From the NCBI GenBank assembly GCA_963742735.1, contig CAVUMN010000003.1, forward strand, positions 704,001 through 768,000: a stretch of 64,000 nucleotides of DNA. Direction: 5' to 3'. Below, piece after piece: positions 13,392-61,026 of this stretch; position 1 is the stretch's first letter, and every line of letters begins with the position of its first letter. Source of the DNA: an uncultured Actinomycetes bacterium (GTDB taxonomy: Bacteria > Actinomycetota > UBA4738 > JBBDTT01). The position numbers and the translations under genes were made by a program. The notes beneath the pieces were generated by a model that saw only the letters and a program-made list of their open reading frames with translations, searched no databases and was not told the origin of the DNA.

Positions 13392-14506
13392 GCATGCGGT
13401 CGCTGGGGCAGCAGACGCCCCAGATCGAGATCGGGGAGCTTCTCGACCTGTGTCTCGAGCGCGACGCGAGCGACCTCCACCTCACGGTGGGGACGTCGCC
13501 GATCCTGCGCGTGAACGGCTCGCTGACCCGGATCGAGCAGTTCCCAGAGCTCCAGCCCGACGAGCTGCGCCGGATGATCTACGCGATCCTCACCCAGAAG
13601 CAGCGGGAGCGCCTCGAGGAGGAGCTGGAGCTCGACCTGTCCTACAACCACCCCGGGAAAGCCCGGTTCCGGGTGAACGTCTACATCCAGCGCGACGCGC
13701 TCGGCGCCGCGTTCCGGTTCATCCCCTTCAAGATCCGCACCGTCGAGGAGCTCGGGCTCCCGCCGATCGTGGCCCAGCTGGCCCGGCTGCCCCGCGGGAT
13801 GATCATCGTCACCGGCCCGACCGGCTCGGGGAAATCGACGTCGCTCGCCGCGATGGTGGACATCATCAACACCGAGCGGGACTGCCACATCATGACCGTC
13901 GAGGACCCGATCGAGTTCCTGCACTACCACAAGCGCGCCATGGTCAATCAGCGCGAGGTGGGCACGGACACCCACGGGTTCACCAACGCCCTGCGCCACG
14001 TCCTGCGCCAGGACCCCGACGTCATTCTGGTCGGTGAGATGCGCGACCTCGAGACGATCCAGACCGGACTGACCGCCGCGGAGACCGGCCACCTGGTGCT
14101 GTGCACCCTGCACACGCAGGACGCCCCGCAGACGATCGACCGCATCATCGACGTCTTCCCGACCGCCCAGCAGCAGCAGGTTCGGGTCCAGCTCGCCTCG
14201 ACCATCCAGGGCGTCGTCACCCAGACCCTGGTCCCGACCTCCGACCGCGCCGGCCGCGCCGTGGCCACCGAGGTCATGGTCGCCACGCCCGCGGTCCGCA
14301 ACCTGATCCGCGAGGCGAAGATCCATCAGATCTACTCCTCCATGCAGGCCGGCGCGAAGTTCGGGATGCACACCATGGACTCCTCGCTCGCCGAGCTGGT
14401 CCGCCGGGGCGTCGTCACCATGCAGGAGGCGGAGGAGCGGGCCCACGACGTGGAGGAGCTCTACCGGCTCCTCGGCCGGAGCACGGGGGGCGTGGGCAGT
14501 GCCTGA
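13388..14506 (+). CDS. pilT: type IV pilus retraction ATPase
   Basis: ASDLHL, GPTGSGKST, EDPIEF, LRQDPD, GEMRD, AVRNLIRE (PilT AIRNLIRE motif), GMHT. Confidence 0.95.
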   Translation: MSMRSLGQQTPQIEIGELLDLCLERDASDLHLTVGTSPILRVNGSLTRIEQFPELQPDELRRMIYAILTQKQRERLEEELELDLSYNHPGKARFRVNVYIQRDALGAAFRFIPFKIRTVEELGLPPIVAQLARLPRGMIIVTGPTGSGKSTSLAAMVDIINTERDCHIMTVEDPIEFLHYHKRAMVNQREVGTDTHGFTNALRHVLRQDPDVILVGEMRDLETIQTGLTAAETGHLVLCTLHTQDAPQTIDRIIDVFPTAQQQQVRVQLASTIQGVVTQTLVPTSDRAGRAVATEVMVATPAVRNLIREAKIHQIYSSMQAGAKFGMHTMDSSLAELVRRGVVTMQEAEERAHDVEELYRLLGRSTGGVGSA

Positions 14507-15707
14507 GACCTTCGCCTACAAGGTCCGCGACCGTCGCGGGGAGCTGATCAGCGGCGAGCTCGTGGCGGACAACCAGGCCCTGGTCCTCAACCGGCTCCGG
14601 GAGATGGGCTACATCCCGGTCTCGGTCGAGCAGAAGAAGACCGGCATGTCTCGCGAGCTCACGATCGGCCGCGGGTTCAAGCTCAAGGACCTGGCGGTCT
14701 TCTCGCGGCAGTTCGCCACGATGATCAACTCCGGCCTCTCGCTGCTGCGCGCGCTGGCGATCCTGGAGCAGCAGACGAAGGCGAAGCCCCTGGCCCGGAC
14801 GATCGGCGCCGTCCGACTGGACGTGGAGCAGGGCGCGTCGCTGTCCCAGGCCCTCCAGAAGCACCCCAAGGCGTTCAACCGGCTGTTCGTGGCCATGGTG
14901 AAGGCCGGCGAGGCCGGCGGTGTCCTCGACTCCGTGCTGATGCGCCTCGCCGACCAGATCGAGCGCGAGGTCCAGCTGCGCCAGAAGATCAAGTCGGCGA
15001 TGACCTACCCCATCGTCGTCCTGGCGTTCGTCCTGCTGATCCTGGCGGCGATGCTGCTGTTCATCGTCCCGCAGTTCGAGACGATCTACTCGGACCTCGG
15101 CGGGACCCTGCCCTTGCCCACGCGCATGTTGCTCGGGGTGAGCAAGGCATTCCGGACGTACTGGTACATCGTCCTGGCCATCATCATCGGCAGCTCCATC
15201 GCGTTCAGCCGGTGGAAGAAGACCGAGAAGGGCCGCCACGCCTGGGACACCATCAAGCTGAAGGTCCCCGTGTTCGGGCCACTGTTCCACAAGACCGCCC
15301 TGTCGCGGTTCTCCCGGACGCTGTCCGCGCTGCTCCGCTCGGGCGTGCCGATCCTGCAGTCGCTGGACATCGTCTCGGAGACCGTCAACAACGCGATGAT
15401 CGCGGACGCCATCAACGACGTGAAGTCGAGCGTCCAGCAGGGCGAGAGCATCGCCCGGCCGCTGCTCAACCACAAGGTCTTCCCGCCGATGCTCGTGCAG
15501 ATGCTGGCGGTGGGGGAGGAGACCGGCGCCGTGGACTCGATGCTCGACAAGGTCGCGGACTTCTACGACGACGAGGTCACGGCCACCGTGGACGCCCTGA
15601 CCTCCCTGATCGAGCCGATCATGATCGCGATCATCGGCGGCATGGTCGGCGCGGCCGTCGTCGCGCTCTACATGCCGATGTTCAACATCATCAACCTGAT
15701 CCAGTAG
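14499..15707 (+). CDS. pilC: type IV pilus inner-membrane platform protein
   Basis: FSRQFATMINSG, AGEAGG, IKSAMTYP, VGEETG, LIEP, YMPMF. Confidence 0.95.
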   Translation: MPETFAYKVRDRRGELISGELVADNQALVLNRLREMGYIPVSVEQKKTGMSRELTIGRGFKLKDLAVFSRQFATMINSGLSLLRALAILEQQTKAKPLARTIGAVRLDVEQGASLSQALQKHPKAFNRLFVAMVKAGEAGGVLDSVLMRLADQIEREVQLRQKIKSAMTYPIVVLAFVLLILAAMLLFIVPQFETIYSDLGGTLPLPTRMLLGVSKAFRTYWYIVLAIIIGSSIAFSRWKKTEKGRHAWDTIKLKVPVFGPLFHKTALSRFSRTLSALLRSGVPILQSLDIVSETVNNAMIADAINDVKSSVQQGESIARPLLNHKVFPPMLVQMLAVGEETGAVDSMLDKVADFYDDEVTATVDALTSLIEPIMIAIIGGMVGAAVVALYMPMFNIINLIQ

Positions 15708-15717
15708 CCCTCCCGCT

Positions 15718-15744
15718 TCAGTCCGAACCCCCTCGAGCCGATGG
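15718..15744 (+). promoter_or_regulatory. sigma28/WhiG-type promoter (leaderless pilin mRNA)
   Basis: TCAG-N15-GCCGATGG, 7 nt before ATG 15752. Confidence 0.65.
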
Positions 15745-15751
15745 TGTACCC

Positions 15752-16228
15752 ATGCCTTCGGACGGCCGGCGCAGTCGCCGGAACGATGAATCCGGCTTCA
15801 CGCTCATCGAGCTGATGGTGGTGGTCCTGATCATCGGGATCCTCATCGCCGTAGCGCTCCCGGTCATGCTCGGGGCGCGCACGCGAACCCAGGACCGCCG
15901 GGCGCACTCCGACCTCCGCAACGGGGTGGCCACGGCCAAGGTCTGGTACTCGGACTCGGAGACGTTCTCCGGCTTCACCGGCGGGCTGGCCGGCACGGCG
16001 GAGTCCCTCGAGCCGAACCTGGACTGGGGCGGCCCCGCGGATCCCGGCGCCACCCGGCAGGTGTCCATCGTCGTGGCCTCGGGCGACGACCTGCTGATCG
16101 TCCGCCGGAGCGACTCGGGCCGCTACTTCTGCCTGTCCGACCAGTTCGCCGCGCCCGGGTTCAGCCGGGGCGGCGGCGCGACCTTCGCCGCAGTCGACAC
16201 CCACGCGGAGTGCGTGGGCGGATGGTAG
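15752..16228 (+). CDS. type IV pilin paralog 1
   Basis: Class III signal RRNDESG/FTLIELMVVVLIIGIL; C-terminal FC...C..W. Confidence 0.9.
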   Translation: MPSDGRRSRRNDESGFTLIELMVVVLIIGILIAVALPVMLGARTRTQDRRAHSDLRNGVATAKVWYSDSETFSGFTGGLAGTAESLEPNLDWGGPADPGATRQVSIVVASGDDLLIVRRSDSGRYFCLSDQFAAPGFSRGGGATFAAVDTHAECVGGW

Positions 16229-16286
16229 GTCTGTACGGAATCTGTCGTAGGTCCAATGGATGGTGGCATCCGGACGAAACCAAGCA

Positions 16287-16313
16287 TAGAGTTTCCCGCG
16301 ATCGGGTCGATAG
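16287..16313 (+). promoter_or_regulatory. sigma28-type promoter of putative major pilin
   Basis: TAGAGTTT-N11-GTCGATAG vs extended consensus TAAAGTTT-N11-GCCGATAA. Confidence 0.6.
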
Positions 16314-16393
16314 GGCCCGGTAGCAGGCCTCTGGGGCGCCCCTCCCGGGGTACTTCGGATCGCCTGACTCCACGACGGAGGGAGGTGAAACGA

Positions 16394-16846
16394 ATGCTCA
16401 TGAAGATCAACCGCAAGCTCCGGGAAGAGGATGGGTTTACTCTCATCGAACTCATGGTGGTGGTCCTGATCATCGGGATCCTGATCGCCATCGCCCTTCC
16501 GACGTTCCTGGGGGCTAGGCGGCGTGCTCAGGACCGGGCGGCTCAGTCCGATCTCCGCAACGCGTTGGCGGCGGCGAAGGTGTACTTCACCGACGACGAC
16601 ACGTACACGGGATTCGACGCAGTCGACGGCGAGGCCATCGAGCCCTCGCTCGACTGGACGACCGGTGTCGGTGACGACGCAGTCCTGATCACGTCGGCAG
16701 CCGCGGGTGAGGTCTCGCTTCAGGCCGACAGCGCGTCCGGTGATGTGTTCTGCATCGCGGACTCGTCCACCGCCGGACAGGGAACCGTCCGCGGTCGTGG
16801 CGCTGCAGCGACCTTCCTCGCGTGTAGCAACCTGGCCGACTGGTAG
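16394..16846 (+). CDS. pilA: type IV pilin, probable major subunit
   Basis: Strong SD GGAGGTG; REEDG/FTLIELMVVVLIIGILIAIALP; own promoter motif and downstream terminator. Confidence 0.88.
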   Translation: MLMKINRKLREEDGFTLIELMVVVLIIGILIAIALPTFLGARRRAQDRAAQSDLRNALAAAKVYFTDDDTYTGFDAVDGEAIEPSLDWTTGVGDDAVLITSAAAGEVSLQADSASGDVFCIADSSTAGQGTVRGRGAAATFLACSNLADW

Positions 16847-16866
16847 ACCGACCGACGAAGCAACGT

Positions 16867-16896
16867 GAAAGGGGCGGCCTCTGGGCCGCCCCTTTC
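16867..16896 (+). terminator. intrinsic terminator/stabilising hairpin after pilA
   Basis: Perfect 13-bp stem GAAAGGGGCGGCC-TCTG-GGCCGCCCCTTTC. Confidence 0.8.
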
Positions 16897-16917
16897 GCGT
16901 ATCGAAAGGACGTGCCC

Positions 16918-17376
16918 GTGTGGCGTGATCTGGGCCCCAGGATCCGGCGCGAGGACGGCTTCACGCTCCTGGAGCTGATGATGGTCGTGCTCATCATCGG
17001 CATCCTGCTCTCGATCGCCCTGCCGACGTACCTGGGGGCGAAGAACCGCGCCCAGGATCGCTCCGCGCAGTCGGACCTGCGCTCGGCGATCGCCGCCGCC
17101 AAGGTGTACTTCACCGACTCCGACACCTTCGCCGGCTTCGATTCCGTCGCGGCCGAGGGGGTGGAACCCTCCTTGATCTGGTCCGATGGCGCGGGCGCCC
17201 CGGTGGGGCAGTCCCAGGTCCGGATCGCGATGGCCGCCCCCGGCGAGGTGGTCATGAACGCCGACAGCAACAGCGCGGCGCTGTTCTGCATCGCCGAGCA
17301 GGCAGGACTGGGCGTGGTCAAGGGGTTGGGGGCGGCGGCGACCTTCCTGGATTGCGCCGGCTTCGCGGACTGGTGA
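16918..17376 (+). CDS. type IV pilin paralog 3
   Basis: RREDG/FTLLELMMVVLIIGILL; shares AAAKVYFTD and AAATFLxC..ADW with pilA; GTG 16918 fits SD AAAGGA (alternative start 16912). Confidence 0.9.
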   Translation: MWRDLGPRIRREDGFTLLELMMVVLIIGILLSIALPTYLGAKNRAQDRSAQSDLRSAIAAAKVYFTDSDTFAGFDSVAAEGVEPSLIWSDGAGAPVGQSQVRIAMAAPGEVVMNADSNSAALFCIAEQAGLGVVKGLGAAATFLDCAGFADW

Positions 17377-17486
17377 CGCCCGCGGGCGTACCCTGATCGG
17401 GACATGTCCCCGCGAATCCCCCAAATGGCCGACGGCCGGACGTCCCCTTTCGAGGAAACCCGGTCCGGGTGGAGAATTGATCCAAC

Positions 17487-19286
17487 GTGAGCACGATCGC
17501 GCCCTTGCTCGCCTGGCTTCGCCGCCGGCTCCGAACCGAGGAGCGAGGCTTCACTCTCGTTGAGCTCATGGTGGCCCAGGGGATCATCCTGGTCTCGCTG
17601 CTGTCCCTGGCCTACACCGCGACGATCGGGTTCACCGACATCGCGCTCGCCCGGCAGCGGCAGGGCGCCAACGGGCTCGCCAACCGGCTCATCGAACAGG
17701 TGCGGGCCCTGCCCTTCCAGCACATCCAGACGGGCCTGTCGACGACCGACTCCACGGTCGTCGCCGGTGGCGACAGCGGCAAGATCCTGGGGAGCGGGTG
17801 CGGCACCGGGAACCTGTGCTACCGGCCGACGACGACGGCTCCGCTGGAGCGCATCGCCCGCGGCAACAATCCGGCCTCCGTACCCCTCAACCCCCACCGG
17901 GCGACCACGACCGTGGGCGTGACCCCGTACACGCGCTACGTCTACATCACCGTCGTCAACAACGACCTCACCCTGAACGCGTACCGGATCACGGTGGTGG
18001 TCGAGTGGACGCCGCCCCACCGGGGCGCCGTCCGGGCCAGCGTCCAGGCCCAGACGATCGCGTACTCCCCACAGGGGTGCACGTCGACGGCCACCCATCC
18101 CTTCGCCGCTCCCTGCCAGCCGTTCATCTACTCGGGGGCGCAGCTGCCGGCGGCGAGCATCCAGGTCATCCCGGAGCCCAACCAGTCGTTCACCGGCGGG
18201 ATCCGAGGGCTCGACCTCGAGAAGGCCTCCATCTACTCCGTGGGCCAGTCGGCGAACGCCCAGGCCGAGCAGGTCACCGCGGTCGCCGGCCGGGCCCTCA
18301 CGTCGGGGATCGACCTCAAGCGCATCGGCGTCTCGGCCACGCCGTCCGGGCAGCAGGTCGTGCTCTCGACGGCGGACAACGACCCCAGCCAGCCCGGAGG
18401 GGAGCACGACGACCTGAGCTCCGTGCTGGGCAGCGGCGGGACGACCCTGTCGCTCGTCGACGACGACCTCTTCGCGGTGAGCCACACGGCCGGCGACACG
18501 ATCAGCGCGATGGGCACCATGAACGCCGGGACGTCGCATCCCTGCGGCGGGCAGACGGACGACCTGGCCTGCGCGCGCACGACCGGGACGGGCAACAGCC
18601 TGAACCGGGTGCGGCTCCAGGTGGACCAGGGAGGCGTTGACCTGGAGGACGCGGTCATCGCCCAGATGAGCGGCTCGGCGATCGCCAGCAGCGCCCTGGT
18701 GCACCGCGATCTCCCCACGGGACTCGACGGAAGCATGGGCGTTCAGCTCACCCGGTCCCTTCCCAACGTCCTGCTGGGCGGCCTGCCCACGGACTTCGCC
18801 GGCCCGACCGGATGGAACACCGCGCTCGGGCTGGTGAGCGTGTCCGGCTACTCGGCCACCCTGGAGGCCCAGGCGGGGGAGAGCACCTCGGCGCTGCCCC
18901 TCTCGGGCGCGGTGACCGCCGGCACGGTCCAGTTCTGGAACGGGACCGGCTACACGACGATCCCCACCTCGACCCTCACCTCGACGGTGCAGACGTCGTT
19001 CCCGGTGGCGTTCGACGTCACCCGGATCATCGACGGCAAGGACGTCCGCGTCGTGATGGACGGCAACTTCCTGGCCGGCGGGCTCACGATCTCCTCGACC
19101 GGCACGTCCACGAACCGGACTCAGGCGGAGGTCCGGGCCCTGCCCGCCCTGGCCGGCTCGATGATCTACCGGATCTTCATCGGCCCGAACACCGACTCGG
19201 AGCAGCTCCAGGCCGCGCTCACCTTCAACGTGGACCTCGGCACCCAGATCGCGTCGGCCTCGTACTCGACGGCCCCGGGAGGCTGA
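17487..19286 (+). CDS. large minor pilin (PilV-position), module 1
   Basis: EERG/FTLVELMVAQGIIL class III signal; 599 aa Thr/Ser/Gly-rich with paired Cys. Confidence 0.82.
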   Translation: MSTIAPLLAWLRRRLRTEERGFTLVELMVAQGIILVSLLSLAYTATIGFTDIALARQRQGANGLANRLIEQVRALPFQHIQTGLSTTDSTVVAGGDSGKILGSGCGTGNLCYRPTTTAPLERIARGNNPASVPLNPHRATTTVGVTPYTRYVYITVVNNDLTLNAYRITVVVEWTPPHRGAVRASVQAQTIAYSPQGCTSTATHPFAAPCQPFIYSGAQLPAASIQVIPEPNQSFTGGIRGLDLEKASIYSVGQSANAQAEQVTAVAGRALTSGIDLKRIGVSATPSGQQVVLSTADNDPSQPGGEHDDLSSVLGSGGTTLSLVDDDLFAVSHTAGDTISAMGTMNAGTSHPCGGQTDDLACARTTGTGNSLNRVRLQVDQGGVDLEDAVIAQMSGSAIASSALVHRDLPTGLDGSMGVQLTRSLPNVLLGGLPTDFAGPTGWNTALGLVSVSGYSATLEAQAGESTSALPLSGAVTAGTVQFWNGTGYTTIPTSTLTSTVQTSFPVAFDVTRIIDGKDVRVVMDGNFLAGGLTISSTGTSTNRTQAEVRALPALAGSMIYRIFIGPNTDSEQLQAALTFNVDLGTQIASASYSTAPGG

Positions 19287-19930
19287 TGGAGATGCTCATC
19301 TGGCTTCGCGACCGGCTTCGGCCCCAGGAGGGGATGACCCTGGTGGAGATGATGGTCACCACGGCCCTGCTGGGCGTCGTCAGCGCGATGTTCATGGCGA
19401 TCATGGCCTCGGTGCAGTCCGGCGTGGAGAAACAGATCGATCGCAGCAACGACAACGACCAGGTCCGCCTGGCCGTCCAGCAGCTCGACCGTGAGATCCG
19501 ATCGGGGAACGTGCTCTACAACCCGAACAACACGGCCTACCTCCCCTCGGGGACGCCGGCCGGGATGGGCATGCTCGTCTACACCCAGAACAACGCGAAC
19601 ATCCGCAACCCCGGGAACCGCTGCGTCCAGTGGCGGATCATCAACGGGGAGCTCCAGCGACGGGACTGGGCGACGGGGGACCCCACCGGGACCGTCTCGA
19701 CGTGGCGGGTCATCGCCGACAACGTGGTGAACGCGACGCTCTCGCCGCAGGTCCCGGCGTTCGTGCTGGACACCGACCCGAACAAGGGGAGCCGGATCGT
19801 CAACGTCACCATCGTGACCCAGACCAACGTGAATTCGGGCAACCCCATCCGCATCTCGGCCTCGCTCACGGGGCGCAACACCTCGTACGGCTACCCGTTG
19901 AGCGTCTGCGCGGCGGTGCCGGCCGCATGA
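19286..19930 (+). CDS. minor pilin (PilW/GspJ-like), module 1
   Basis: ATG overlaps TGA; PQEG/MTLVEMMV; LDREIRSG. Confidence 0.82.
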   Translation: MEMLIWLRDRLRPQEGMTLVEMMVTTALLGVVSAMFMAIMASVQSGVEKQIDRSNDNDQVRLAVQQLDREIRSGNVLYNPNNTAYLPSGTPAGMGMLVYTQNNANIRNPGNRCVQWRIINGELQRRDWATGDPTGTVSTWRVIADNVVNATLSPQVPAFVLDTDPNKGSRIVNVTIVTQTNVNSGNPIRISASLTGRNTSYGYPLSVCAAVPAA

Positions 19931-19941
19931 GAGGAGGAGCG

Positions 19942-21405
19942 ATGTTCCTCAGGCTCCACCGGGACGAGCGGGGCGTGGCCCTGATCACCGCGATGCTCGT
20001 GGGGATGGTCGTGCTCTCGCTGGGGCTGGTGACGATCCAGCTCTCGGCGCACAACGCCGACTCGAGCTCCCTGGACCGCAAGCGCCTCCAGGCCATCCAC
20101 GCGGCCGAGGCGGGCCTGGACCTGTACCTGGCCCAGCTGCCGCGCACCGCGATCGGCGCTATCCAGTGCACGCCCGCCGTCCAGACGCTGCCCCTGGAGG
20201 GCGGCGCGCAGTACCAGATCACGGCGCAGTTCTATCCCACGTTCCCGGGGGTGACGGGTCAGCAGCTGACCTGCCCCCTGACCTCGACGACCGTGCCGGC
20301 GGGCGCGGTCATCACGTCGCGGGGCACCGCCGTTGCCGTGGGCAACGTACGGGCCGTCTCGCGGACGTTCCAGACCGAGGTCGCCCTGAACCCCATCCTC
20401 GGCGGCTTCGCCCCCGCGATCTTCTCCGACGTCCAGTTCAGCGTGAACAACAACCTGAACGTGTACGGCAACACCGGGAACGACGCCGACATGTACACGA
20501 ACGGCAACTTCGTCTGCTCGAACTCCTCGCTGGACTACGGGAGCGTGAACGCCCAGGGCTTCGCCTCGCTCTCCAACTCCTGCACCGTCGCCCAGGACCT
20601 GCGGGTGGGCGGGAACATCACCATGACGCAGAGCTCGCGCGTGGGCCACGACGCCATCTCCTCGGCCGGCACGATCACGCTGGCGAACTCGGCTCAGATC
20701 GGCAACAACGCCCGCGCCGCGGGGGCCTGCTCGGGATGCGTCCAGGGCTCGAGCGTGCTGGGGACGATCACCACCAACAGCAGCTCGGCGCCGCCCCCCC
20801 AGATCGCCATGCCCACCGTCAACTGGGCGGGCGGGACGGCCTGGTCGACGGCCGGCTACACCATCGCGAGCTTCAGCGACTGCACGGCGGCCAGGAACCA
20901 CATCCAGAACGTGGTCAGCGGGAGCAGCACCCCGACCGTCGTCCGGATCACTTCCTCCTGCGCACTGGCGTTCAGCAGCTCGGCCGACGTCTTCCTGGGC
21001 GCGAACCTGGCGATCATCACCAACGGGTCGATCAGCACGTCCAACCACTCCATCTTCAAGTCGACCACGAGCACCCCCCGGGAGATGTTCTTCATCGTCC
21101 CGCGGGACATCTTCACGCCGGCCACCCCGCCTGATTCCCGGGCCACCAACTGCAGCGGGACGACCAACAACATCAATATGGTCAACAACACCGACATCGT
21201 GAACGTGCGGCTGTTCCTGTACAGCCCCTGCACGATCAACCTGAACAACAACAACCTCGGGCTGGGCGGCCAGATCTTCGGCCAGAACGTGAACATCAAC
21301 AATCACTTCTCGTTCACGTACCGGCCGATGCTGATCCCGGGGGCGGGGAGCATCGTCGGGTTCAACTCGGACATCGCGTACCTTCGCGAGATCACGAACG
21401 CGTAG
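19942..21405 (+). CDS. minor pilin (PilX/GspK-like, no Glu5), module 1
   Basis: SD GAGGAGG; DERG/VALITAML; QAIHAAEAGL PilX N-terminal motif; Asn/Ser-rich C-terminal region. Confidence 0.82.
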   Translation: MFLRLHRDERGVALITAMLVGMVVLSLGLVTIQLSAHNADSSSLDRKRLQAIHAAEAGLDLYLAQLPRTAIGAIQCTPAVQTLPLEGGAQYQITAQFYPTFPGVTGQQLTCPLTSTTVPAGAVITSRGTAVAVGNVRAVSRTFQTEVALNPILGGFAPAIFSDVQFSVNNNLNVYGNTGNDADMYTNGNFVCSNSSLDYGSVNAQGFASLSNSCTVAQDLRVGGNITMTQSSRVGHDAISSAGTITLANSAQIGNNARAAGACSGCVQGSSVLGTITTNSSSAPPPQIAMPTVNWAGGTAWSTAGYTIASFSDCTAARNHIQNVVSGSSTPTVVRITSSCALAFSSSADVFLGANLAIITNGSISTSNHSIFKSTTSTPREMFFIVPRDIFTPATPPDSRATNCSGTTNNINMVNNTDIVNVRLFLYSPCTINLNNNNLGLGGQIFGQNVNINNHFSFTYRPMLIPGAGSIVGFNSDIAYLREITNA

Positions 21406-21419
21406 CCGAACGACGAGCT

Positions 21420-21446
21420 TCAGCGGGCGCCCTCCCGGGCCGATAT
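21420..21446 (+). promoter_or_regulatory. sigma28/WhiG-type promoter of minor-pilin module 2
   Basis: TCAG-N15-GCCGATAT, 7 nt before ATG 21454. Confidence 0.7.
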
Positions 21447-21453
21447 CTGGTGC

Positions 21454-23205
21454 ATGGCGACCATCCGCCGCATCCTTCGCGGCGCCCGCGCACGACTGGC
21501 TCACCCTCGGGATGAGACCGGCTTCACGCTGGTCGAGCTCATGGTGGCGCAGGGGATCATCCTGGTCTCGCTGCTCTCTCTGGCGTACACGGCCACGGTC
21601 GGCTTCTCGGACATCGCCCTGGCCCGCCAGCGCCAGGGGGCGAACGGGATCGCCAACCAGATCCTCGAACAGGTCCGCGCGCTGCCCTTCGACACCCTGA
21701 AGCGCGGCCTGGCGAACTCCGACCTTCCCGCCGGCGATCCGGCGATCATCACCTCCGGGTGCCCCGGAAACGCCCCGTACTGCTACCGGTCCTCCGCCTC
21801 GGCGGCGCTCGAGGCGATCCCCCGCGGCAACAACGCCGCGGTGGCGCCGCTGGTGCCGCACCGGGCCAACGTGACGGTCGGGCAGGTCACGTACAGCCGG
21901 GCGGTCTACGTCACCTACTATCAGAACGACGCCTCCCTCAACGCGTTCCGGGTCACGGTGGTCGTGTCCTGGACGAACCCGGCCCGCCGGGGCGTCGACT
22001 CCACCGTCGTCGCCCAGAGCGTCATGTACTCGCCGCCGGGGTGCGTCTCCACGGCCACCCACCCGTTCGCGGCCCCGTGCCAGCCGTTCTTCTACGGGGC
22101 GGCGCAGAACCCGGCCGGCCAGATCTCGATCGCGGGGACGCTGGCCGGGATCGATCTCACGAAGGCGACGCTGTGGACCCCGGCGCAGTCCTCGACCATG
22201 CAGGTCGAGCAGATCTCGGCCGTGCAGGGGTCGTCCACCACCGCCGGCATGAGCCTGTCCCTGGCGGGGAACGAGACGACCACGGGACGGGTCACGGCGA
22301 ACTCCTCGGCGGAGAACGACCCCGCGCAGCCGGGCCAGGACTACGAGACCGCGTCCACCTCCGGATCGAGCCAGATCCTCTCGGCGGGAAGCGGCAACAC
22401 CATCGCGCTCTCGGTGGCCGCCGGGTCGAGCGGAAGCACGATCAGCACCACCTCGGCCAACACCTCGCACCCGTGCGCCTCACAGACCGACGACCAGGCC
22501 TGCGGGCGATCGACCGCCACGCAGGGGGCGGCGCTCAGCCTGACGGCCGGGCTCAACACCGGCTTCCTGGGCCTGGGGACCGCCAACGTGGTCTCGGTCG
22601 CCACGTACACGACGACCGGCACCACCAACCGTGAGCTGGACGCCTCGGGAGACGGCAAGATCGCGGTCACGGCCAGCCGGAGCATCGGCGACGTCCGCAT
22701 CGGCGGCCTCCCGACGGGCCTCGGGGCGCTCCTGCTCCCGTTCGGCTGGCAGGGCCATCTGGTTCGGGTCACGGGGTACAGCGACTCGCTCACGGCGCAG
22801 ACCGGCATCAACACCGCCGCGCCGAGCGTGACCGCCGGCGGCACCATCAGTGTCTGGAACGGGTTCGGCTACACGAACGTGAACATCGTTCCCGGGGCGT
22901 CGGTGAACGTCCCCGTTACGTCGATCACCGTGCAGGACCCGCTCTCCCCCGGAGGTCTGCTTCGGATCACGCTGGGGGCCACGGTGCGGACGGGCGGCAC
23001 GACGGCGACGGCCACCTCGAAGGTTTGCTCGCCCTCCTGCCTGAACACGCGCACGGCGGCCACCGCGTCGGCCGCCTCGCCGGTCATCGTGGACCTCACG
23101 CTCGACGTCACCTTCGCGGGGAACTCGATCGCGGACCTCGACGTGCACGTCGACCTGGGAACCCTCCAGGTCACCGGCGCGTACACGGAGGCCCCCGGTG
23201 GATGA
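21454..23205 (+). CDS. large minor pilin (PilV-position), module 2
   Basis: DETG/FTLVELMVAQGIIL; paralog of 17487..19286. Confidence 0.82.
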   Translation: MATIRRILRGARARLAHPRDETGFTLVELMVAQGIILVSLLSLAYTATVGFSDIALARQRQGANGIANQILEQVRALPFDTLKRGLANSDLPAGDPAIITSGCPGNAPYCYRSSASAALEAIPRGNNAAVAPLVPHRANVTVGQVTYSRAVYVTYYQNDASLNAFRVTVVVSWTNPARRGVDSTVVAQSVMYSPPGCVSTATHPFAAPCQPFFYGAAQNPAGQISIAGTLAGIDLTKATLWTPAQSSTMQVEQISAVQGSSTTAGMSLSLAGNETTTGRVTANSSAENDPAQPGQDYETASTSGSSQILSAGSGNTIALSVAAGSSGSTISTTSANTSHPCASQTDDQACGRSTATQGAALSLTAGLNTGFLGLGTANVVSVATYTTTGTTNRELDASGDGKIAVTASRSIGDVRIGGLPTGLGALLLPFGWQGHLVRVTGYSDSLTAQTGINTAAPSVTAGGTISVWNGFGYTNVNIVPGASVNVPVTSITVQDPLSPGGLLRITLGATVRTGGTTATATSKVCSPSCLNTRTAATASAASPVIVDLTLDVTFAGNSIADLDVHVDLGTLQVTGAYTEAPGG

Positions 23206-23818
23206 GCTGCGCCGGCGCCTGCGCTCGGAGTCGGGGATGACGCTCCTGGAGCTGATGGTCACCACCAGCCTGCTCGGGATCGTCAGCGTGATGTTCCTGT
23301 CGATCATGACCTCGGTGCAGTCCGGGGTGCACAAGGAGACGGACCGGAGCAACGACAACGACCAGGCTCGCCTGGCGGTCCAGCAGCTCGACCGGGAGAT
23401 CCGTTCGGGGAACGTGCTCTACGACCCGGCCTCGGAGCCGGCCCCGTTCACCCCCTATTACAGCCTCCGCGTGTACACGCAGGCCAACGCCAACATCCGG
23501 ACTCCCGGCAACCGCTGCGTGCAGTGGCGGATCCTCGATGGGGAGCTCCTCCGGCGGGACTGGGACGGGGTGAACCCCGCGGCGACGGTCTCGCCGTGGC
23601 GGGTGGTCGCCGACAGCCTGGTCAACCAGGACCTCGGCGTCCCGGCGTTCGTCCTCGACGCCGACCCTCAGAAGGGCGGGCGCATCGTGAACGTGACGAT
23701 CGTGACCCAGACGGACGCCGATTCCGGCAACCCCGTGCGGCTCTCCGTCTCGCTCACCGGGCGGAACACCTCCTACGGCTACCCCGTGAACGTCTGCGGG
23801 ACGATCCCGGCGGCGTAG
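23198..23818 (+). CDS. minor pilin (PilW/GspJ-like), module 2
   Basis: SESG/MTLLELMV; paralog of 19286..19930. Confidence 0.82.
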   Translation: MDELRRRLRSESGMTLLELMVTTSLLGIVSVMFLSIMTSVQSGVHKETDRSNDNDQARLAVQQLDREIRSGNVLYDPASEPAPFTPYYSLRVYTQANANIRTPGNRCVQWRILDGELLRRDWDGVNPAATVSPWRVVADSLVNQDLGVPAFVLDADPQKGGRIVNVTIVTQTDADSGNPVRLSVSLTGRNTSYGYPVNVCGTIPAA

Positions 23819-25258
23819 ATGGGACGGCTCGCGCTGCGACGGCTGCATCGGGACGAGCGGGGCGTGGCCCTGGTCACCGCGATGCTGGTCGGCATGGTCG
23901 TCCTCTCGCTCAGCCTGATCACCGTCCAGCTGTCCGCGCACAACGTCGACGCGAGCTCGAGCGACCGCAAGCGCGTCCAGGCCATCCACGCGGCGGAGGC
24001 GGGCCTGGACTCCTACCTGGCCCTGCTCGCGAGGACCCCGATCGGCAGCATCCAGTGCACGCCGCCCCCGAGCTTGCTCCCGATCGACCCCGGGGCGCAG
24101 TTTCAGATCACCGCCACGTACTACCCGACCTACCCCGGGGTCGTGGGCCAGGAGCTGTCCTGCCCGCTGAGCCCCAGCGCTCCGCCGAAGGGGGCGGTCA
24201 TCACCTCACGCGGCACCGCGATGCCGGGAAGCGGGTCGAGGCCGGTGTCCCGAACCATGCAGACCGAGGTCCGGCTGAGCCCGATCTTCGGCGGCTACAA
24301 CTTCGCGATCTTCTCCAACAGCGGGATGAGCGTCCAGAACAACCTGACCGTGAACGGCTACGCCGGCAACGACGGCGACATCTACACGAACGGGAACTTC
24401 GCGTGCACCAACGGGACGACCGACTACGGGACGGTGACCACGCAGGGGAGCGCGTCGGTCTCGAACACCTGCAACATCCTCCAGGACCTGCGCGCCAACG
24501 GGAACATCACGATGTCGAACTCGGGGCACGTCGGGCACGACGCCACCTCGTCCACGGGGTCGATCACCATGCTGAACTCGTCGCGGATCGACAACAACGC
24601 GCGCGCCGGCACGACGTGCGTGGGGTGCGTGCAGGGGAACAACGTCCTTGGCAACCTCACCACCTCGTCGCCGTCGCCCGCGCCGATCCTGTACCCGCTG
24701 CCGCAGATCGACTACGTCGCGGCCTCGTGGCAGGCGGAGGGCTACACCGCCCACAACGACTCAAGCTGCGCCACGGCGAAGACGTTCGTCCAGTCGCTGG
24801 CCGCCTCGTCCACTCCCTACGTGGAACGGATCGGCACCACGTGCGCCCTGGCGTTCAGCAACAACAGCACGATCACCCTGGGCTCGGACCTGGCCATCAT
24901 CACCAACGGGTCGATCTCCACGGGGAACTTCACGGTCTTCAGGTCCTCGAACGCGGCGGAGCCGAGGGACCTGCACCTCATCGTTCCCGTGAGCGCCGTC
25001 TCGAGCTGCACGGGAACGCAGAACATCACCTTCGCGAACAACACCGACTTCCAGAACGTGCGGGTGTTCGTGTACACGCCGTGCACCGCCTCGATGAACA
25101 ACAACAACATCGGGCTGGGAGGCCAGATCATCGGGGGCACCGTCAACCTGCTCAACCACTTCGCGTTCACCTACTACCCGATGCTCGTGCCCGGGGCCGG
25201 ATCGATCACCGGCTACACGCCGGACATCGCGTACCTCCGCGAGATCACCAACACCTAG
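23819..25258 (+). CDS. minor pilin (PilX/GspK-like), module 2
   Basis: DERG/VALVTAML; QAIHAAEAGL; paralog of 19942..21405. Confidence 0.82.
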   Translation: MGRLALRRLHRDERGVALVTAMLVGMVVLSLSLITVQLSAHNVDASSSDRKRVQAIHAAEAGLDSYLALLARTPIGSIQCTPPPSLLPIDPGAQFQITATYYPTYPGVVGQELSCPLSPSAPPKGAVITSRGTAMPGSGSRPVSRTMQTEVRLSPIFGGYNFAIFSNSGMSVQNNLTVNGYAGNDGDIYTNGNFACTNGTTDYGTVTTQGSASVSNTCNILQDLRANGNITMSNSGHVGHDATSSTGSITMLNSSRIDNNARAGTTCVGCVQGNNVLGNLTTSSPSPAPILYPLPQIDYVAASWQAEGYTAHNDSSCATAKTFVQSLAASSTPYVERIGTTCALAFSNNSTITLGSDLAIITNGSISTGNFTVFRSSNAAEPRDLHLIVPVSAVSSCTGTQNITFANNTDFQNVRVFVYTPCTASMNNNNIGLGGQIIGGTVNLLNHFAFTYYPMLVPGAGSITGYTPDIAYLREITNT

Positions 25259-25279
25259 GGTCCGGGTACGCTTCGCATC

Positions 25280-26044
25280 GTGGCCGTGGCGATCGCCATC
25301 CTGTTCGGACTGACGTTCGGCAGCTTCCTGACCGTCGTCGTGCACCGCACCCCCCGCCGTGAGCCGATCGGGCGGGGGAGGAGCCGGTGCCCCTCGTGCG
25401 GGACGACGCTCACCTGGCGGGACAACATCCCGGTCGTCTCCTTCCTGGTCCTGCGGGGGCGGTGCCGGCACTGCGGGGCCCGGATCTCGCCGCGGTACCC
25501 GCTGATCGAGCTCGGGACCGCCGCGCTGTTCGCCGGCGCGGTGATCCGGTACTCGGACGACGCGGTCGCGGCCGTGATCGCCCCGTTCCTGGGCGTGCTC
25601 CTGGCCCTGGCCCTGGTGGATCTGGAGCACCGGATCATCCCCAACGCCGTCGTCTATCCGGCCCTGCCGGTCTTCGCGGTGGCGATCGTGGCCCTCGACC
25701 TGGCCGGCCGGGCGGCGAGCGTCGTCGACGCCGGCATCGGGTTCCTCGCCTACGGGGGAGGGCTGCTCGTGATCGCCCTCATCCGTCCCGGGGGGATGGG
25801 GATGGGCGACGTGAAGCTCGCCGGGCTGATCGGGCTGGTCCTCGGGAGCCAGGGACTCGGCGTCGTCGGCGTCGCCGCGGCGCTCGGGATCCTCTTGGGC
25901 GGGCTCGGGGGAGTGGTGGCGCTCGCCGTCGGCCGGTCCCGGAAGTCCGCCCTGCCGTTCGGGCCGTTCCTGGCCGCGGGGGCCATCGCGGCCGCCCTGT
26001 GGGGCCGGGAGATCGCCGACGCCTACCTGTCGCTGCTGACCTAG
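25280..26044 (+). CDS. pilD: prepilin peptidase / N-methyltransferase (A24)
   Basis: GSFLTVVVHR, CPSC...CRHC, VDLEHRIIPN, GMGDVKL, LPFGPFL. Confidence 0.93.
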   Translation: MAVAIAILFGLTFGSFLTVVVHRTPRREPIGRGRSRCPSCGTTLTWRDNIPVVSFLVLRGRCRHCGARISPRYPLIELGTAALFAGAVIRYSDDAVAAVIAPFLGVLLALALVDLEHRIIPNAVVYPALPVFAVAIVALDLAGRAASVVDAGIGFLAYGGGLLVIALIRPGGMGMGDVKLAGLIGLVLGSQGLGVVGVAAALGILLGGLGGVVALAVGRSRKSALPFGPFLAAGAIAAALWGREIADAYLSLLT

Positions 26045-26142
26045 TCCGGAGGGTCCCGCGCGGTCGAGCGCACCTCCGTCAACGGCCGGGAATTACAGTT
26101 CTGTCATTGAACAGGCGGGCAAAAAAGTGTCTCCCGTGATGT

Positions 26143-26171
26143 TTGACTACGACCGTGCGCATCGTTAGCCT
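26143..26171 (+). promoter_or_regulatory. sigmaA-type promoter upstream of HTH-pilMNOP
   Basis: TTGACT-N17-TAGCCT with an upstream A6 tract at 26121-26126. Confidence 0.65.
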
Positions 26172-26187
26172 CGGGCCCAGCGGTGGT

Positions 26188-26241
26188 GCTGTGAGTCTTG
26201 TTGAAGCTGTGATAGCTGTTAAACTTGTTGAAGTTGTGAAA
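26188..26241 (+). repeat. six tandem 9-bp direct repeats (putative operator)
   Basis: GCTGTGAGT CTTGTTGAA GCTGTGATA GCTGTTAAA CTTGTTGAA GTTGTGAAA; invariant TGT at positions 3-5. Confidence 0.85.
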
Positions 26242-26264
26242 GCCGCAGGTCAGAGGGCCGAAAA
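26238..26264 (+). promoter_or_regulatory. sigma28/WhiG-type promoter of HTH-pilMNOP
   Basis: GAAA-N15-GCCGAAAA, 9 nt before ATG 26274. Confidence 0.55.
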
Positions 26265-26273
26265 GGGGTAGCG

Positions 26274-26486
26274 ATGGCACCGAAGGGCCGGAGCTTCGTG
26301 GGCGACCGCCTCCTCACCGTGGGTGAGGTGGCCGGCAGCATGCGCGTCTCGAACATGACGGTCTACCGCCTGATCAAGAGCGGCCAGCTCGCCGCCATCC
26401 GCGTGGGGAAGAACTACCGGATCCGTGAGTCCGACGTCGATCGGTACCTCTCGGAGCGGTCCGTGCGCGTCGAGGAGCTTCCCTGA
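26274..26486 (+). CDS. excisionase/BldC-like (HTH_17, MerR-type) DNA-binding protein
   Basis: LLTVGEVAGSMRVSNMTVYRLIKSGQLAAIRVGKNYRI; 70 aa; TGATG-coupled to pilM. Confidence 0.88.
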   Translation: MAPKGRSFVGDRLLTVGEVAGSMRVSNMTVYRLIKSGQLAAIRVGKNYRIRESDVDRYLSERSVRVEELP

Positions 26487-27538
26487 TGCCCAAGTCCCGC
26501 ATCGGCGTCGACGTCGGCTCCACCGCGGTTCGGGCCGCCGAGCTCTCGATCGGGTCCGAGCCGCCCACACTCGTGCGGGCCGCGCAGGTCCGCCTGACGC
26601 CCGGCACCGTGGAGAACGGCGAGGTGCGCCAGCCCGAGGTCCTGGCGGAGGCCCTGAAGGAGCTGTGGCAGCGGGGCGGATTCAAGGGCAAGCAGATCGT
26701 GATGGGCGTGGGAAACCAGCGGGTGATCGTCCGCGAGGTCACGCTCCCGGCGCTGCCCGACAAGGAGCTCCGGGAGTCGCTGCCGTTCCAGGTGCAGGAG
26801 TTCATCCCCCTGCCGGTCGACGAGGCGATCCTGGACTACGACGTCATCGAGGAGTTCACCGAGGACAACCGCAAGCTCGTCCGCCTGCTGCTGGTTGCGG
26901 CGCAGCGGGACATGGTGAGCACGCTGGTGGGTGCCGCCTCGGCCGCGAACCTCGACACGGTGGGGGTCGACCTGGTGCCGTTCGCGATCGTCCGCGCCAT
27001 CGGATCGACGGCCACCATCGGGCTCGACCCCGACGTGGGCGGCGAGGCCGTGATCGACATCGGCGCGGACGTCACGAACATCTGCGTGCACGAGAACGGC
27101 ACGCCGCGGTTCGTGCGCATCCTGCCCTCCGGCGGCCGCGACGTGACCCAGGCCATCGGCCGGGCCCTGGGGATGGAGGATCAGGCCGCCGAGGACGCCA
27201 AGCGCGGCCGGGCCGACGGTGAGGGCCCGGCGGCGGACGAGGTCGACCGCGTGGCCTTCAGCCGCGCCGGCACCTTCGTCGACGAGGTGCGGTCCTCGCT
27301 GGACTTCTACCTGGCGCAGACGCCGGGAGCCCGGATCACGCGCGTCGTGGTCAGCGGCGGCGGCTCGAAGCTCGCCGGGCTGATCGATCTGCTTCGAGAG
27401 CGCCTGTCCACCAACGTCGACCGTGGCCGCCCCTTCGACCGGGTCAGTGCCCGGCTCAACCTGCCCGAAGACGAGCTTGCGGAGGCCGAGCCGGTGCTCG
27501 CCGTCGCCGTGGGGCTCGCGCTCCCCCCGGAGGACTGA
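26486..27538 (+). CDS. pilM: type IV pilus assembly protein PilM
   Basis: Actin-like motifs IGVDVGS, IDIGADVT, SGGGSKL; EVRSSLDFY. Confidence 0.93.
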   Translation: MPKSRIGVDVGSTAVRAAELSIGSEPPTLVRAAQVRLTPGTVENGEVRQPEVLAEALKELWQRGGFKGKQIVMGVGNQRVIVREVTLPALPDKELRESLPFQVQEFIPLPVDEAILDYDVIEEFTEDNRKLVRLLLVAAQRDMVSTLVGAASAANLDTVGVDLVPFAIVRAIGSTATIGLDPDVGGEAVIDIGADVTNICVHENGTPRFVRILPSGGRDVTQAIGRALGMEDQAAEDAKRGRADGEGPAADEVDRVAFSRAGTFVDEVRSSLDFYLAQTPGARITRVVVSGGGSKLAGLIDLLRERLSTNVDRGRPFDRVSARLNLPEDELAEAEPVLAVAVGLALPPED

Positions 27539-28164
27539 TGACGAAGATCAACCTTCTCCCCCCGGAGCTCATCGAGCGCCAGAAGGCCCGGCGCCAGACC
27601 ACGATCGTGGCCATCGTTGGGTTCCTGGTCATCGTCCTGCTCGGCTTCTTCTACGTCATGCAGCAGATCAAGCTGTCGGGCCTCGACGAGGACCTGGCGG
27701 CTCAGCAGGCTGAGAACGACGATCTGACCGCCCAGGTGAACGACCTCAAGCGCTTCGACGAGCTGCTCGCCGAGATCGCGGACCGCGAGGACCTGCTGGT
27801 GACCCTGCTCGAGAACGAGGTCCGGTGGTCGGGTGTGCTTCGCGACCTGTCCCTGGTGATCCCCGGGACGGCCTGGCTCGAGAGCCTCGAGGCGGCGGTG
27901 GACGATCCACTGAACCTGGTCGCCGAGGACAGCCTGGTCACGAGCGACCAGGACCTCGTCGGAGCGATCTCGTTCGTCGGGAAGGCCGACCGCCATCCGA
28001 CGGTCGCGGAGTGGCTGACGGCCCTCGAGAAGATCCGAGGGTTCTTGAACCCGTGGATCTCCGAGTCCGTAATTGAGCCCATCGGCGACGTCCCGGTCGT
28101 CAAGTTCACGTCGACGGTTGACCTCACCAGCGATATCACGGTCGAGGGGAGGGCACAGCAGTGA
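27538..28164 (+). CDS. pilN: type IV pilus assembly protein PilN
   Basis: N-terminal INLLP motif, TM helix, coiled coil. Confidence 0.9.
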   Translation: MTKINLLPPELIERQKARRQTTIVAIVGFLVIVLLGFFYVMQQIKLSGLDEDLAAQQAENDDLTAQVNDLKRFDELLAEIADREDLLVTLLENEVRWSGVLRDLSLVIPGTAWLESLEAAVDDPLNLVAEDSLVTSDQDLVGAISFVGKADRHPTVAEWLTALEKIRGFLNPWISESVIEPIGDVPVVKFTSTVDLTSDITVEGRAQQ

Positions 28165-28895
28165 GTCGCCGCGCGCCGCTCTTCGCCGCCATCGGCATGG
28201 TCCTGCTGGTGATCGTGGTCGTCTTCGTGGCCATCCTTCCCAAGATGAAGCAGGTCACCCAGCGCCAGGACGAGCTCGAGGCCGCCCAGCAGCAGGAGCA
28301 GTTCCTGCTGGCCGAGCTGCAGCGACTCCAGGACGTCCGGGGCCAGCTGCCGGAGGTTCGCCGCCGCCTGGCGAAGTTCAACCAGAAGGTCCCCGGCACG
28401 GCCGACCTCCCGGGGCTGATCCGGCTGCTCCAGAACGCGGCCGACGCGTCGAACCTCTCGTTCTTCTCGATCAAGCCGGGCGACCCGACCCCGGTGGGCG
28501 CCGCCGCGCCCGTGCTGCCGACCGTCGCTCCGTCGCCCGATGCGACCCCGACCGTCCCGCCGGTGGTCACGGCGCCGACGGGCGAGGCCTCGGTGATCTC
28601 CTCGGAGGTCGTGATCGTGGGCTTCTTCTTCGACATCGACCAGTTCCTGTTCCGGCTGGAGAACCTGCCCCGCGCGGCCAAGGTGATCACCGTCTCGATC
28701 ACCCCCGGACCCAACCAGAACGAGCTCCCCGGGGAGCTCCAGACGACCCTTCTGCTCCAGGTCTACACGACGGACGCGAACGCCGGGCCGGGGTCCTCGG
28801 TCGAGCTCCCGCCGGACGAGCCCGTGGCGAGCCCCAGTCCCGGCGCCACGACCTCGCCGGTCACCAGCCCGTCCCCGACCACCACCGGAGGCTGA
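28161..28895 (+). CDS. pilO: type IV pilus assembly protein PilO
   Basis: TM + coiled coil, VPxxADLPGLI, FLxRLENLPR; follows pilN. Confidence 0.85.
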   Translation: MSRRAPLFAAIGMVLLVIVVVFVAILPKMKQVTQRQDELEAAQQQEQFLLAELQRLQDVRGQLPEVRRRLAKFNQKVPGTADLPGLIRLLQNAADASNLSFFSIKPGDPTPVGAAAPVLPTVAPSPDATPTVPPVVTAPTGEASVISSEVVIVGFFFDIDQFLFRLENLPRAAKVITVSITPGPNQNELPGELQTTLLLQVYTTDANAGPGSSVELPPDEPVASPSPGATTSPVTSPSPTTTGG

Positions 28896-28898
28896 TCG

Positions 28899-29435
28899 AT
28901 GAGCGGCCGAGAGCGACGGCTACTGATGGTGCTGGGCGGTGTCGCGGTGCTCGCGGCGGTCTGGTTCCTGTTCTTGCGGGGCGGCGGCGAGGAGCCGATC
29001 GACCAGCCCACCGCGCTGCCCCCGATCGTCGCGCCCGAGCCCGTTCCGACGGTCAGCGGCCCGCCCAAGCTGCCGCCGCTGGCGATCTTCGGCGGACGCG
29101 ACCCGTTCTTCCCGCTGGTCCTGCCGCCCACCGCCGGAGGGGGGACGGTCGCGCCGACCACGTCCGCCCCCACGTCACCGGGACCGTCGGTCTCCCCGGC
29201 TCCGCCGCCGTCGGGCGGCAACGGGATCGGCGGCCACGACGTTCGGGTGCTCGACATCTTCGTGCGCAACGGGGAGGAGCTCGTCCAGGTCGAGGTGGAC
29301 GGCGACGTGTTCACGGTGGGCGAGGGAGACACGTTCGCCGGGAACTTCAAGGTCGTCTCGATCGACGGGCAGTGCGCCACGTTCCTGTTCGGCGACGAGC
29401 AGTTCACGAGGTGCGAACCCGGCGTCAACAAGTAA
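28899..29435 (+). CDS. PilP-position membrane-anchored protein
   Basis: TM anchor, Pro-rich linker with RDPF motif, small beta-rich C-terminal domain with two Cys. Confidence 0.6.
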   Translation: MSGRERRLLMVLGGVAVLAAVWFLFLRGGGEEPIDQPTALPPIVAPEPVPTVSGPPKLPPLAIFGGRDPFFPLVLPPTAGGGTVAPTTSAPTSPGPSVSPAPPPSGGNGIGGHDVRVLDIFVRNGEELVQVEVDGDVFTVGEGDTFAGNFKVVSIDGQCATFLFGDEQFTRCEPGVNK

Positions 29436-60743: not shown

Positions 60744-60827
60744 AGCACGCATTGTCCCAGGTGGGAGCGGGTTCGCGGAAGGGAGAACCCTTCCAGACGC
60801 GCCGGTATACTCGGGTGAGAAGACAAG

Positions 60828-60952: not shown

Positions 60953-61026
60953 GCAGCGACGACCGCGGCGCCTTCGGCGCGCCGCCCTCGCCCGCTTCCC
61001 TTCCCCCCGCTCCGGAAAGGCACGAC

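Follow-up and report, generated by a model that had tools for sequence, protein, structure and literature searches.

A conserved 9-bp direct-repeat array ahead of a BldC-like gene and pilMNO in uncultured Actinomycetota: a candidate autoregulatory operator

The window analysed here is a stretch of 64,000 nucleotides (nt) from contig CAVUMN010000003.1 (positions 704,001 to 768,000, forward strand) of assembly GCA_963742735.1, an uncultured Actinomycetes bacterium whose genome comprises 3.08 Mb at 71% G+C on five contigs. Ahead of a gene for a 70-amino-acid (aa) helix-turn-helix (HTH) protein, which heads the type IV pilus genes pilM, pilN and pilO, it carries an array of six contiguous 9-bp direct repeats (26188-26241 in window numbering, used throughout). 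The array is conserved among relatives of the source organism and accompanies the HTH gene, whose product resembles BldC of Streptomyces. Since the array is conserved and gene-linked, the protein BldC-like, and BldC protomers are seated on 9 bp each, the best reading appears to be that the array is a BldC-type autoregulatory DNA operator of the HTH-pilMNO operon; with the binding itself predicted from sequence and a structural model, we hold this to be probable.

The six units read GCTGTGAGT CTTGTTGAA GCTGTGATA GCTGTTAAA CTTGTTGAA GTTGTGAAA, with CTTGTTGAA present twice and TGT at unit positions 3-5 in all six, just as an earlier note made from the letters alone had described them. The array is far beyond chance: none of 100 dinucleotide-preserving shuffles of the window reproduced the six-fold TGT-N6 pattern, and no other run of at least five TGT at 9-bp spacing exists on either strand of the 3.08-Mb genome. 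Its position-weight tandem score is 50.6 against a genome mean of -14.3 (standard deviation 3.1), the next best value (32.4) falling within the window itself, around 21163 on the minus strand. The earlier note had proposed scanning the genome for further arrays; the genome-wide position-weight tandem scan found no second one elsewhere in the source genome. Tandem Repeats Finder at score 30 reported no repeat in the array region because the units are only 63-81% alike, and a repeat search recovered the array family at spacings of 18 and 9.

Orthologous loci were gathered from 41 genomes of the same order, 80 public genome records and 151 genomes across the phylum. The 80 records, which are the best genome matches, are all metagenome-assembled genomes labelled Actinomycetota, one of them as 'Solirubrobacterales'. 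There are 117 distinct loci, 113 of them with at least 700 nt downstream of the gene. Several of the counts include genomes marked unpublished (G006, G014, G027, G030, G031, G039, G041, G085 and G178), while G057, G117 and G152, likewise unpublished, enter only the phylum-wide genome tallies. Five unpublished genomes contributed to the set of 91 distinct loci on which the array was studied; their removal leaves 87 loci, and the main counts hold.

The periodicity can be seen without recourse to any motif. In the 150 nt before the start codon of the 91 loci, the 3-mer autocorrelation is 0.076, 0.057 and 0.050 at lags 9, 18 and 27, against about 0.018 after shuffling; lags 3 and 6 are flat (0.020 and 0.021) and lags 12 and 15 show no rise. 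In 65 of the 91 loci (63 of 87 without the unpublished genomes), the strongest lag is one of 9, 18 and 27. A unit matrix built from the first 30 loci and then applied to all 91 finds a phased run of 3-8 units immediately ahead of the HTH gene in 60 of them (59 of 87), so that the arrays which the earlier note had expected at orthologous HTH-pilM loci are indeed present in most of these. Phased arrays also occur in 40 of the 62 loci not identical to any matrix-training locus, and outside the order at least three phased units are found in 6 of 23 loci of the phylum. Across relatives the unit consensus is G-W-T-G-T-K-R-M-A.

The array is always on the coding strand and downstream of a conserved promoter in the relatives' loci. 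In 28 of the 60 arrays it ends 0-9 nt from the start codon, with a GGAG ribosome-binding site inside the last units, and in the remaining 32 it ends 11-140 nt away (32 nt in this window). In some families (L015, L019, L096, L097, L026, L101), the unit motif occurs on both strands instead of as a one-way array, in the form of a long inverted repeat or of CATG-linked palindromic units such as TGTGCAACATGTTGCACA; reverse-strand unit scores of at least 20 were recorded in 9 of 105 rows scored.

The association with the HTH gene emerges from a search of the 41 whole genomes with a degenerate three-unit pattern (at most one mismatch), which returned 29 places, 23 of them HTH leaders, in 12 genomes; the reversed pattern, used as control, matched once. 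Two of the six other places are in open reading frames (ORFs) encoding PVA and TPV tripeptide repeats, three are a single conserved 25-mer whose inspected copy lies within long open frames, and one is a contig-end duplicate. By this search, non-coding arrays occur only before this HTH gene in the 41 genomes, and the comparisons support the view that the array is a conserved cis-element tied to it. The HTH gene in turn is followed by pilM within 450 nt in 111 of the 113 loci. The gap exceeds 150 nt in 28 of these 111 (L021, L038, L042-L070 and others), where an extra small gene intervenes; that of L021 is a second HTH copy in tandem, 80% identical.

The HTH protein matches the HTH_17 family over residues 13-63 (E 9.8e-15) and the model TIGR01764 with 63.5 bits against a cut-off of 28.8. 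It is a single winged-helix domain of 70 aa, predicted as strand-helix-helix-strand-strand-helix, with neither a coiled coil nor an effector domain. The only significant relatives in the Protein Data Bank (PDB) by sequence are the BldC structures 6AMA and 6AMK (E 6e-4). With the AlphaFold2 model (mean predicted local distance difference test, pLDDT, 84) as query, the top seven Foldseek rows are all BldC chains, with E-values all above 0.001, as expected for a query of 70 aa. Five of these superpose with a root-mean-square deviation of 0.9-1.5 Å over 50-52 columns at 42-44% identity, and two longer alignments of 60-62 columns reach 3.7 Å. They are followed by the MerR-family regulator CadR, a mycobacteriophage Xis, RacA and further MerR-family proteins. 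Sequence and model together support a BldC-like protein. Between families, identity in its HTH core stays at 80-97% where that of PilM is 55-82%, a degree of conservation to be expected of a small protein that devotes most of its surface to contacts with DNA and with its neighbours.

According to the BldC study of Schumacher et al. 2018 (PMC5859096), protomers of this single MerR/Xis-like winged helix of about 70 aa each take up 9 bp of direct repeat, head to tail and in variable number; Arg30 contacts a 5'-YpG-3' step and the wing reads an A/T-rich, narrowed minor groove. The present system shares the size and fold, the 9-bp period, the direct repeats and the variable number of units. BldC Arg30 aligns with Arg32, which is invariant in 80 homologs, and the TG that is invariant in every unit constitutes a YpG step. 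Thr27, Lys33 and Arg48 of BldC are likewise kept, as T29, K35 and R49. Written in BldC notation, the unit would be A-W-S-T / N4 / C beside AATT / N4 / C for BldC, and the A-S-W-T found four bp beyond the TG step would be the counterpart of the AATT, giving both systems an A/T-rich tetrad 4 bp from the YpG. They differ in the unit core, which is TGT here and AATT in the BldC described there (PMC5859096), and in the arrays, which here run to as many as 8 good units within the leader of their own operon. They also differ in the target: here a predicted one, a type IV pilus operon, in place of the developmental genes of BldC.

Natural concatemers of the domain also exist: P0123, with a length of 479 aa, contains eight HTH_17 stretches at about 60 aa for each domain and without long linkers, P0145 has five such stretches, and P0127 is also among these proteins. 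Such concatemers fit the picture of domains lined up side by side on repeated DNA.

The features of the locus, in order along the window, are the following.

25280..26044, plus strand: pilD, prepilin peptidase (Pfam A24_N_bact, E 4.3e-33; Peptidase_A24, E 1.4e-13)
26091..26108, no strand assigned: 18-bp dyad AATTACAGTTCTGTCATT, likely site of a separate dimeric regulator
26143..26171, plus strand: sigmaA-type promoter, -35 TTGACT at 26143-26148, 17-nt spacer, -10 TAGCCT at 26166-26171
26152..26169, plus strand: two degenerate unit-like 9-mers, ACCGTGCGC and ATCGTTAGC, in the promoter spacer and -10, with CGT for TGT
26188..26241, plus strand: array of six 9-bp direct repeats, proposed operator
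26238..26264, plus strand: sigma28-like string GAAA-N15-GCCGAAAA, judged non-functional
26263..26268, plus strand: Shine-Dalgarno-like AAGGGG, 5 nt before the ATG, inferred from sequence
26274..26486, plus strand: gene for the 70-aa BldC-like winged-helix protein (HTH_17/excisionase family, E 9.8e-15), heading the operon
26486..27538, plus strand: pilM (PilM_2, E 9.1e-51; TIGR01175, 205 bits against a cut-off of 133)
27538..28164, plus strand: pilN (PF05137, 23.3 bits against a cut-off of 22.8)
28161..28895, plus strand: pilO (PF04350, 36.7 bits against a cut-off of 22)
28899..29435, plus strand: ORF of 178 aa, without family match

These genes close a type IV pilus cluster (11280-29435) made up of pilB-type and pilT-type ATPases, pilC, pilins, pilD, the HTH gene, pilM, pilN, pilO and the 178-aa ORF, after which come the chorismate synthase and dehydroquinate synthase genes; several of the pilin-like genes have N-methylation motifs. 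In 24 of 30 loci of relatives, the HTH gene is likewise preceded by a pilD relative. The spacer between pilD (end 26044) and the HTH gene (start 26274) is 229 nt long, with 54-57% G+C against about 70% around it, and holds in succession the 18-bp dyad, TTGACT-N17-TAGCCT, the six 9-mers and AAGGGG.

Much of what the earlier note had drawn from the sequence is borne out by these data. The string TTGACT-N17-TAGCCT is at 26143-26171, and the 70-aa HTH gene is coupled to pilM, its stop codon TGA (26484-26486) overlapping the pilM ATG that begins at 26486 (TGATG). The note's pilMNOP holds for PilM, PilN and PilO, which score above their cut-offs in that order, but not for PilP: searches of the ORF at 28899-29435 against Pfam and NCBIfam gave no match, which leaves that identity unsupported.

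The promoter form TTGAN-N16-18-TANNNT is found at the equivalent place in 54 of the 91 distinct orthologous loci, with a strongly conserved consensus; a generic promoter scan did not flag the copy at 26143-26171, which has 8 of 12 matches against a threshold of 9. Transcription is predicted to start near 26178, and the array would then span about +11 to +64. The note had placed the array between two promoters, the second being of the sigma28 type. The sigma28/WhiG consensus is of the form TAAA-N15-GCCGATAA, and the string at 26238-26264 does fit it at 3 of 4 and 7 of 8 positions. As a promoter, however, it was rejected, for its frequency is at chance level and it is not conserved. The motif class has 2 matches genome-wide, where 30 letter-permuted controls average 1.2 and the reversed pattern yields 1. 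The same-genus ortholog L002 has the string altered to TAAA-N13-GCCGTGTA, and it is absent from the many loci whose array reaches as far as the start codon. Only the upstream promoter is supported, which places the array in the transcribed leader, with a single promoter on one side and the gene on the other.

A sigma factor gene of the FliA/WhiG family is present in the genome (C3:589537-590208, 267.7 bits, above cut-off), and no flagellin gene was found in the 88.9%-complete source genome; the factor may be WhiG-like, with a non-flagellar regulon. Many families (L009, L011, L013 and L038 among them) also have a conserved GTGCCGA(A/T)AG about 20 nt upstream of the -35, between it and the dyad. 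The element, which the genus of this window does not have, resembles a sigma28/WhiG -10, with no matching -35 seen.

The mechanism that we favour for the array as an autoregulatory DNA operator may be put as follows. The sigmaA-type promoter would transcribe the HTH gene together with pilM, pilN and pilO. One HTH monomer would sit on each 9-bp unit, with Arg32 of the recognition helix reading the TpG step and the wing placed in the A/T-rich junction between units, and monomers would polymerise head to tail over the 54-bp array. In many relatives, the polymer would extend further, onto two unit-like 9-mers that lie in the promoter spacer and -10. Among 47 aligned promoters of relatives, such 9-mers begin 9 bases from the first base of the -35 in 28 and 18 bases from it in 37, against a background of 3.8% per position; the second of them may instead be an extended -10, whereas the first is not accounted for by polymerase contacts. 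Occupancy would block RNA polymerase, by occlusion or as a roadblock, and result in cooperative self-repression of the operon. Because the HTH gene is translationally coupled to pilM, the level of its product would report the output of the operon, and through this feedback the PilMNO alignment proteins would be kept at a fixed amount. An external signal would probably come from the upstream dyad at 26091-26108, bound by another dimeric regulator.

The sign of regulation, like the binding, the polymerisation and the transcription start, is something we infer. BldC itself is reported to act as repressor or activator (PMC6428758), and the position of the sites, on the promoter and immediately after it, is our reason for favouring repression here. 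The claim of the earlier note that the HTH protein coats its own operator is, then, consistent with the conserved, gene-linked array and the BldC-like protein, while the part that had it govern a sigma28 promoter falls away. The observations on which the mechanism builds are the array with its conservation, the link of the array to the HTH gene and no other, and the likeness of the protein to BldC in fold and residues.

A number of findings weigh against this interpretation. The NCBIfam model for BldC itself, NF033787 (HTH_BldC), gives the protein 28.2 bits against a cut-off of 77, a score too low for it to be filed as a BldC ortholog. Of the nine DNA-contact residues named for BldC, five are changed (K26 to M28, T29 to Y31, W31 to L33, H46 to N47 and R47 to Y48). 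The HTH core is invariant both with a strong array (62 loci) and without one (25 loci), so there is no covariation of protein and site, and the gene clearly functions in some lineages that have no long array. The promoter-embedded units of this window are degenerate, with CGT for TGT. A paralog of the protein could be the one that binds the array. Lastly, the array lies in a transcribed leader, often at the ribosome-binding site (28 of 60), which would suit control at the level of RNA equally or better.

The last point leads to the first of two alternatives to the DNA operator, both of which we rate as unlikely while giving them more weight than the rest. The UGU repeats might act in the messenger RNA (mRNA) to control translation of the HTH gene and the coupled pilM, either as the target of an RNA-binding factor that forms oligomers, a part in which the HTH protein itself is conceivable, or as a standby or enhancer region free of structure. 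That the array is always downstream of the promoter on the coding strand, and within 9 nt of the start codon with GGAG inside it in 28 of 60 loci, accords with such a role. The leader, moreover, is G/U-rich and folds no more stably than its shuffles (z = 0.16), and the repeats would therefore be single-stranded and accessible. A precedent for the arrangement is TRAP on the Bacillus trp leader, an 11-mer ring that binds triplet repeats with variable 2-3-nt spacers; there too, many short regular repeats in a leader reach the ribosome-binding site. The register here is, in contrast, strictly 9 nt, a feature typical of protein-protein contacts on duplex DNA, and the locus is not linked to a protein of that kind or to any other RNA-binding protein gene. 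Moreover, a search of the leader with Rfam found no family at the gathering threshold or at E up to 10, and 32 of the 60 arrays stop 11-140 nt short of the start codon. The unit-like 9-mers within the promoter spacer, in untranscribed DNA, and the units on the opposite strand in some lineages fit recognition of duplex DNA instead.

With much the same small probability, the array might be a DNA operator for a different protein, be it a paralog of the HTH protein or a repeat binder of the response-regulator or DnaA type. The paralog (C4:1148758-1148931) is a small HTH_17 gene whose product is 62% identical to the HTH protein, has a near-identical recognition helix (MRVSKMTVYRLIK in the paralog, MRVSNMTVYRLIK in the HTH protein) and is encoded in most genomes of the order and beyond. 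The existence of HTH-pilM loci without long arrays would also sit well with an outside binder. Against this, non-coding arrays are found solely before the HTH gene in the 41 genomes, and none was seen upstream of the paralog. As for the other candidates, the period is strictly 9, unlike the 10-11-bp periods of OmpR-type regulators, and although units of some relatives (TGTGGAA, TGTGGCA) resemble the reverse complement of the DnaA box consensus, TGTGGA occurs in none of the six units of the window, on which ground DnaA boxes were rejected.

Less probable still is the combination in which the HTH protein polymerises on its leader mRNA, or on DNA and RNA in turn, and so masks the ribosome-binding site, by which it would set its own translation and that of the coupled pilM. 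Such a mode would account for the fusion of about half of the arrays to that site, but to our knowledge RNA binding has not been described for winged helices of the MerR/Xis/BldC type.

That the repeats code for a short leader peptide, or extend the HTH protein at its N-terminus, can practically be dismissed. Metagenome gene calls of 113-117 aa do run through the array, the frame in unit register is stop-free (with a 42-codon ORF at 26143-26271 in the window), and every unit offers ATG, TTG, GTG or CTG. Yet this candidate was rejected on frames, stops, third positions and periodicity: relative to the unit, the HTH start codon is spread over all three frames (22, 20 and 18 of 60), the frames out of unit register are open in only 21 and 16 of 60 arrays, the invariant T and the alternation of G and T would occupy synonymous third positions, with C in just 2 of 101 in a genome of 71% G+C, there is no 3- or 6-nt periodicity, and the window ORF begins at the -35 hexamer, upstream of any likely transcript. 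The array being non-coding, the longer gene calls are to be seen as over-extensions through a stretch that is free of stops and rich in start codons.

The DNA-operator reading can further be placed among other systems in which small proteins meet repeats. Excisionases such as phage lambda Xis and the Xis of mycobacteriophage Pukovnik (PDB 4J2N) belong to the same fold class, 4j2n standing at Foldseek rank 9-10, and as monomers they bind direct repeats cooperatively. They differ in context: in place of an integrase, att site or prophage, the HTH gene has pil and aro neighbours (between 11280 and 32322 these are pilB/T/C, pilins, pilD, pilMNO and aro, with no integrase or mobile-element context), and the HTH-pilM module is vertically conserved across orders. 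In its layout, the locus also recalls ParR/parC of plasmid R1, where a small protein coats a direct-repeat array that overlaps its own promoter, in an operon with an actin-fold ATPase. ParR is a ribbon-helix-helix protein on 11-bp repeats, and the actin-fold product of the present locus is PilM proper, with PilN and PilO encoded after it in a pilus cluster on the chromosome; the likeness is one of layout only. Finally, Gp36 of phage D29 is a repressor that acts through repeats upstream of genes, and these repeats, as described (PMC12266134), differ from the present ones in being GC-rich and 15-19 nt apart.

The AT-rich dyad upstream of the promoter forms a second conserved element of the spacer. 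Its consensus, AATTACA-N4-TGTAATT, is situated about 35 bp upstream of the -35 and is found, with at most 3 of 14 mismatches, in 58 of 89 orthologous loci, as against none in coding and none in shuffled controls. It is also conserved in lineages without the 9-bp array. In the source genome, of 71% G+C, the dyad sequence is matched exactly at 2 sites, with one mismatch at 4 and with two at 7, including those at C4:1332758, C4:1441923, C2:55150, C4:160523 and C4:252005. Neighbours judged by eye include guaA-, recA-, dnaE- and lon-like genes, a MoxR ATPase and a lysine-rich histone-like protein. From its sequence and distribution, the dyad looks like the box of a global dimeric regulator with a genome-wide regulon. 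The LexA box, of consensus TCGAAC-N4-GTTCGA, was considered and rejected as its identity, lexA and recA both carrying that canonical form.

With respect to the literature, a search that left outside its reach subscription-only articles and about 1.7 million PMC articles returned no description of an HTH_17 or BldC-like gene heading pilMNO or of such an array, and in what was found on BldC-like and BldC-family proteins nothing links BldC to pilM or to pili. What would be new here, as judged from sequence, are the recognition core, the long operators in the protein's own leader and a pilus operon as the target of BldC-type binding. Hardly any regulators of type IV pili are known from Actinomycetota, and within its DNA-binding class BldC is the only cellular protein to have been studied. 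The locus may thus be viewed as a second natural test case for head-to-tail polymerisation on 9-bp repeats, with unusually long and clean operators (3-8 units) and its own PilMNO operon as the obvious target, in a module common to many uncultured soil lineages. If the predicted binding is true, it would provide a simple model in which cooperativity depends on the number of units, a way into pilus expression for these lineages and a rule (TpG, 4 bp, A/T-rich tetrad, period 9) for predicting the sites of other HTH_17 proteins.

Elsewhere in the window, an FMN riboswitch occupies 60827-60954, scoring 109 bits against a gathering score of 66.

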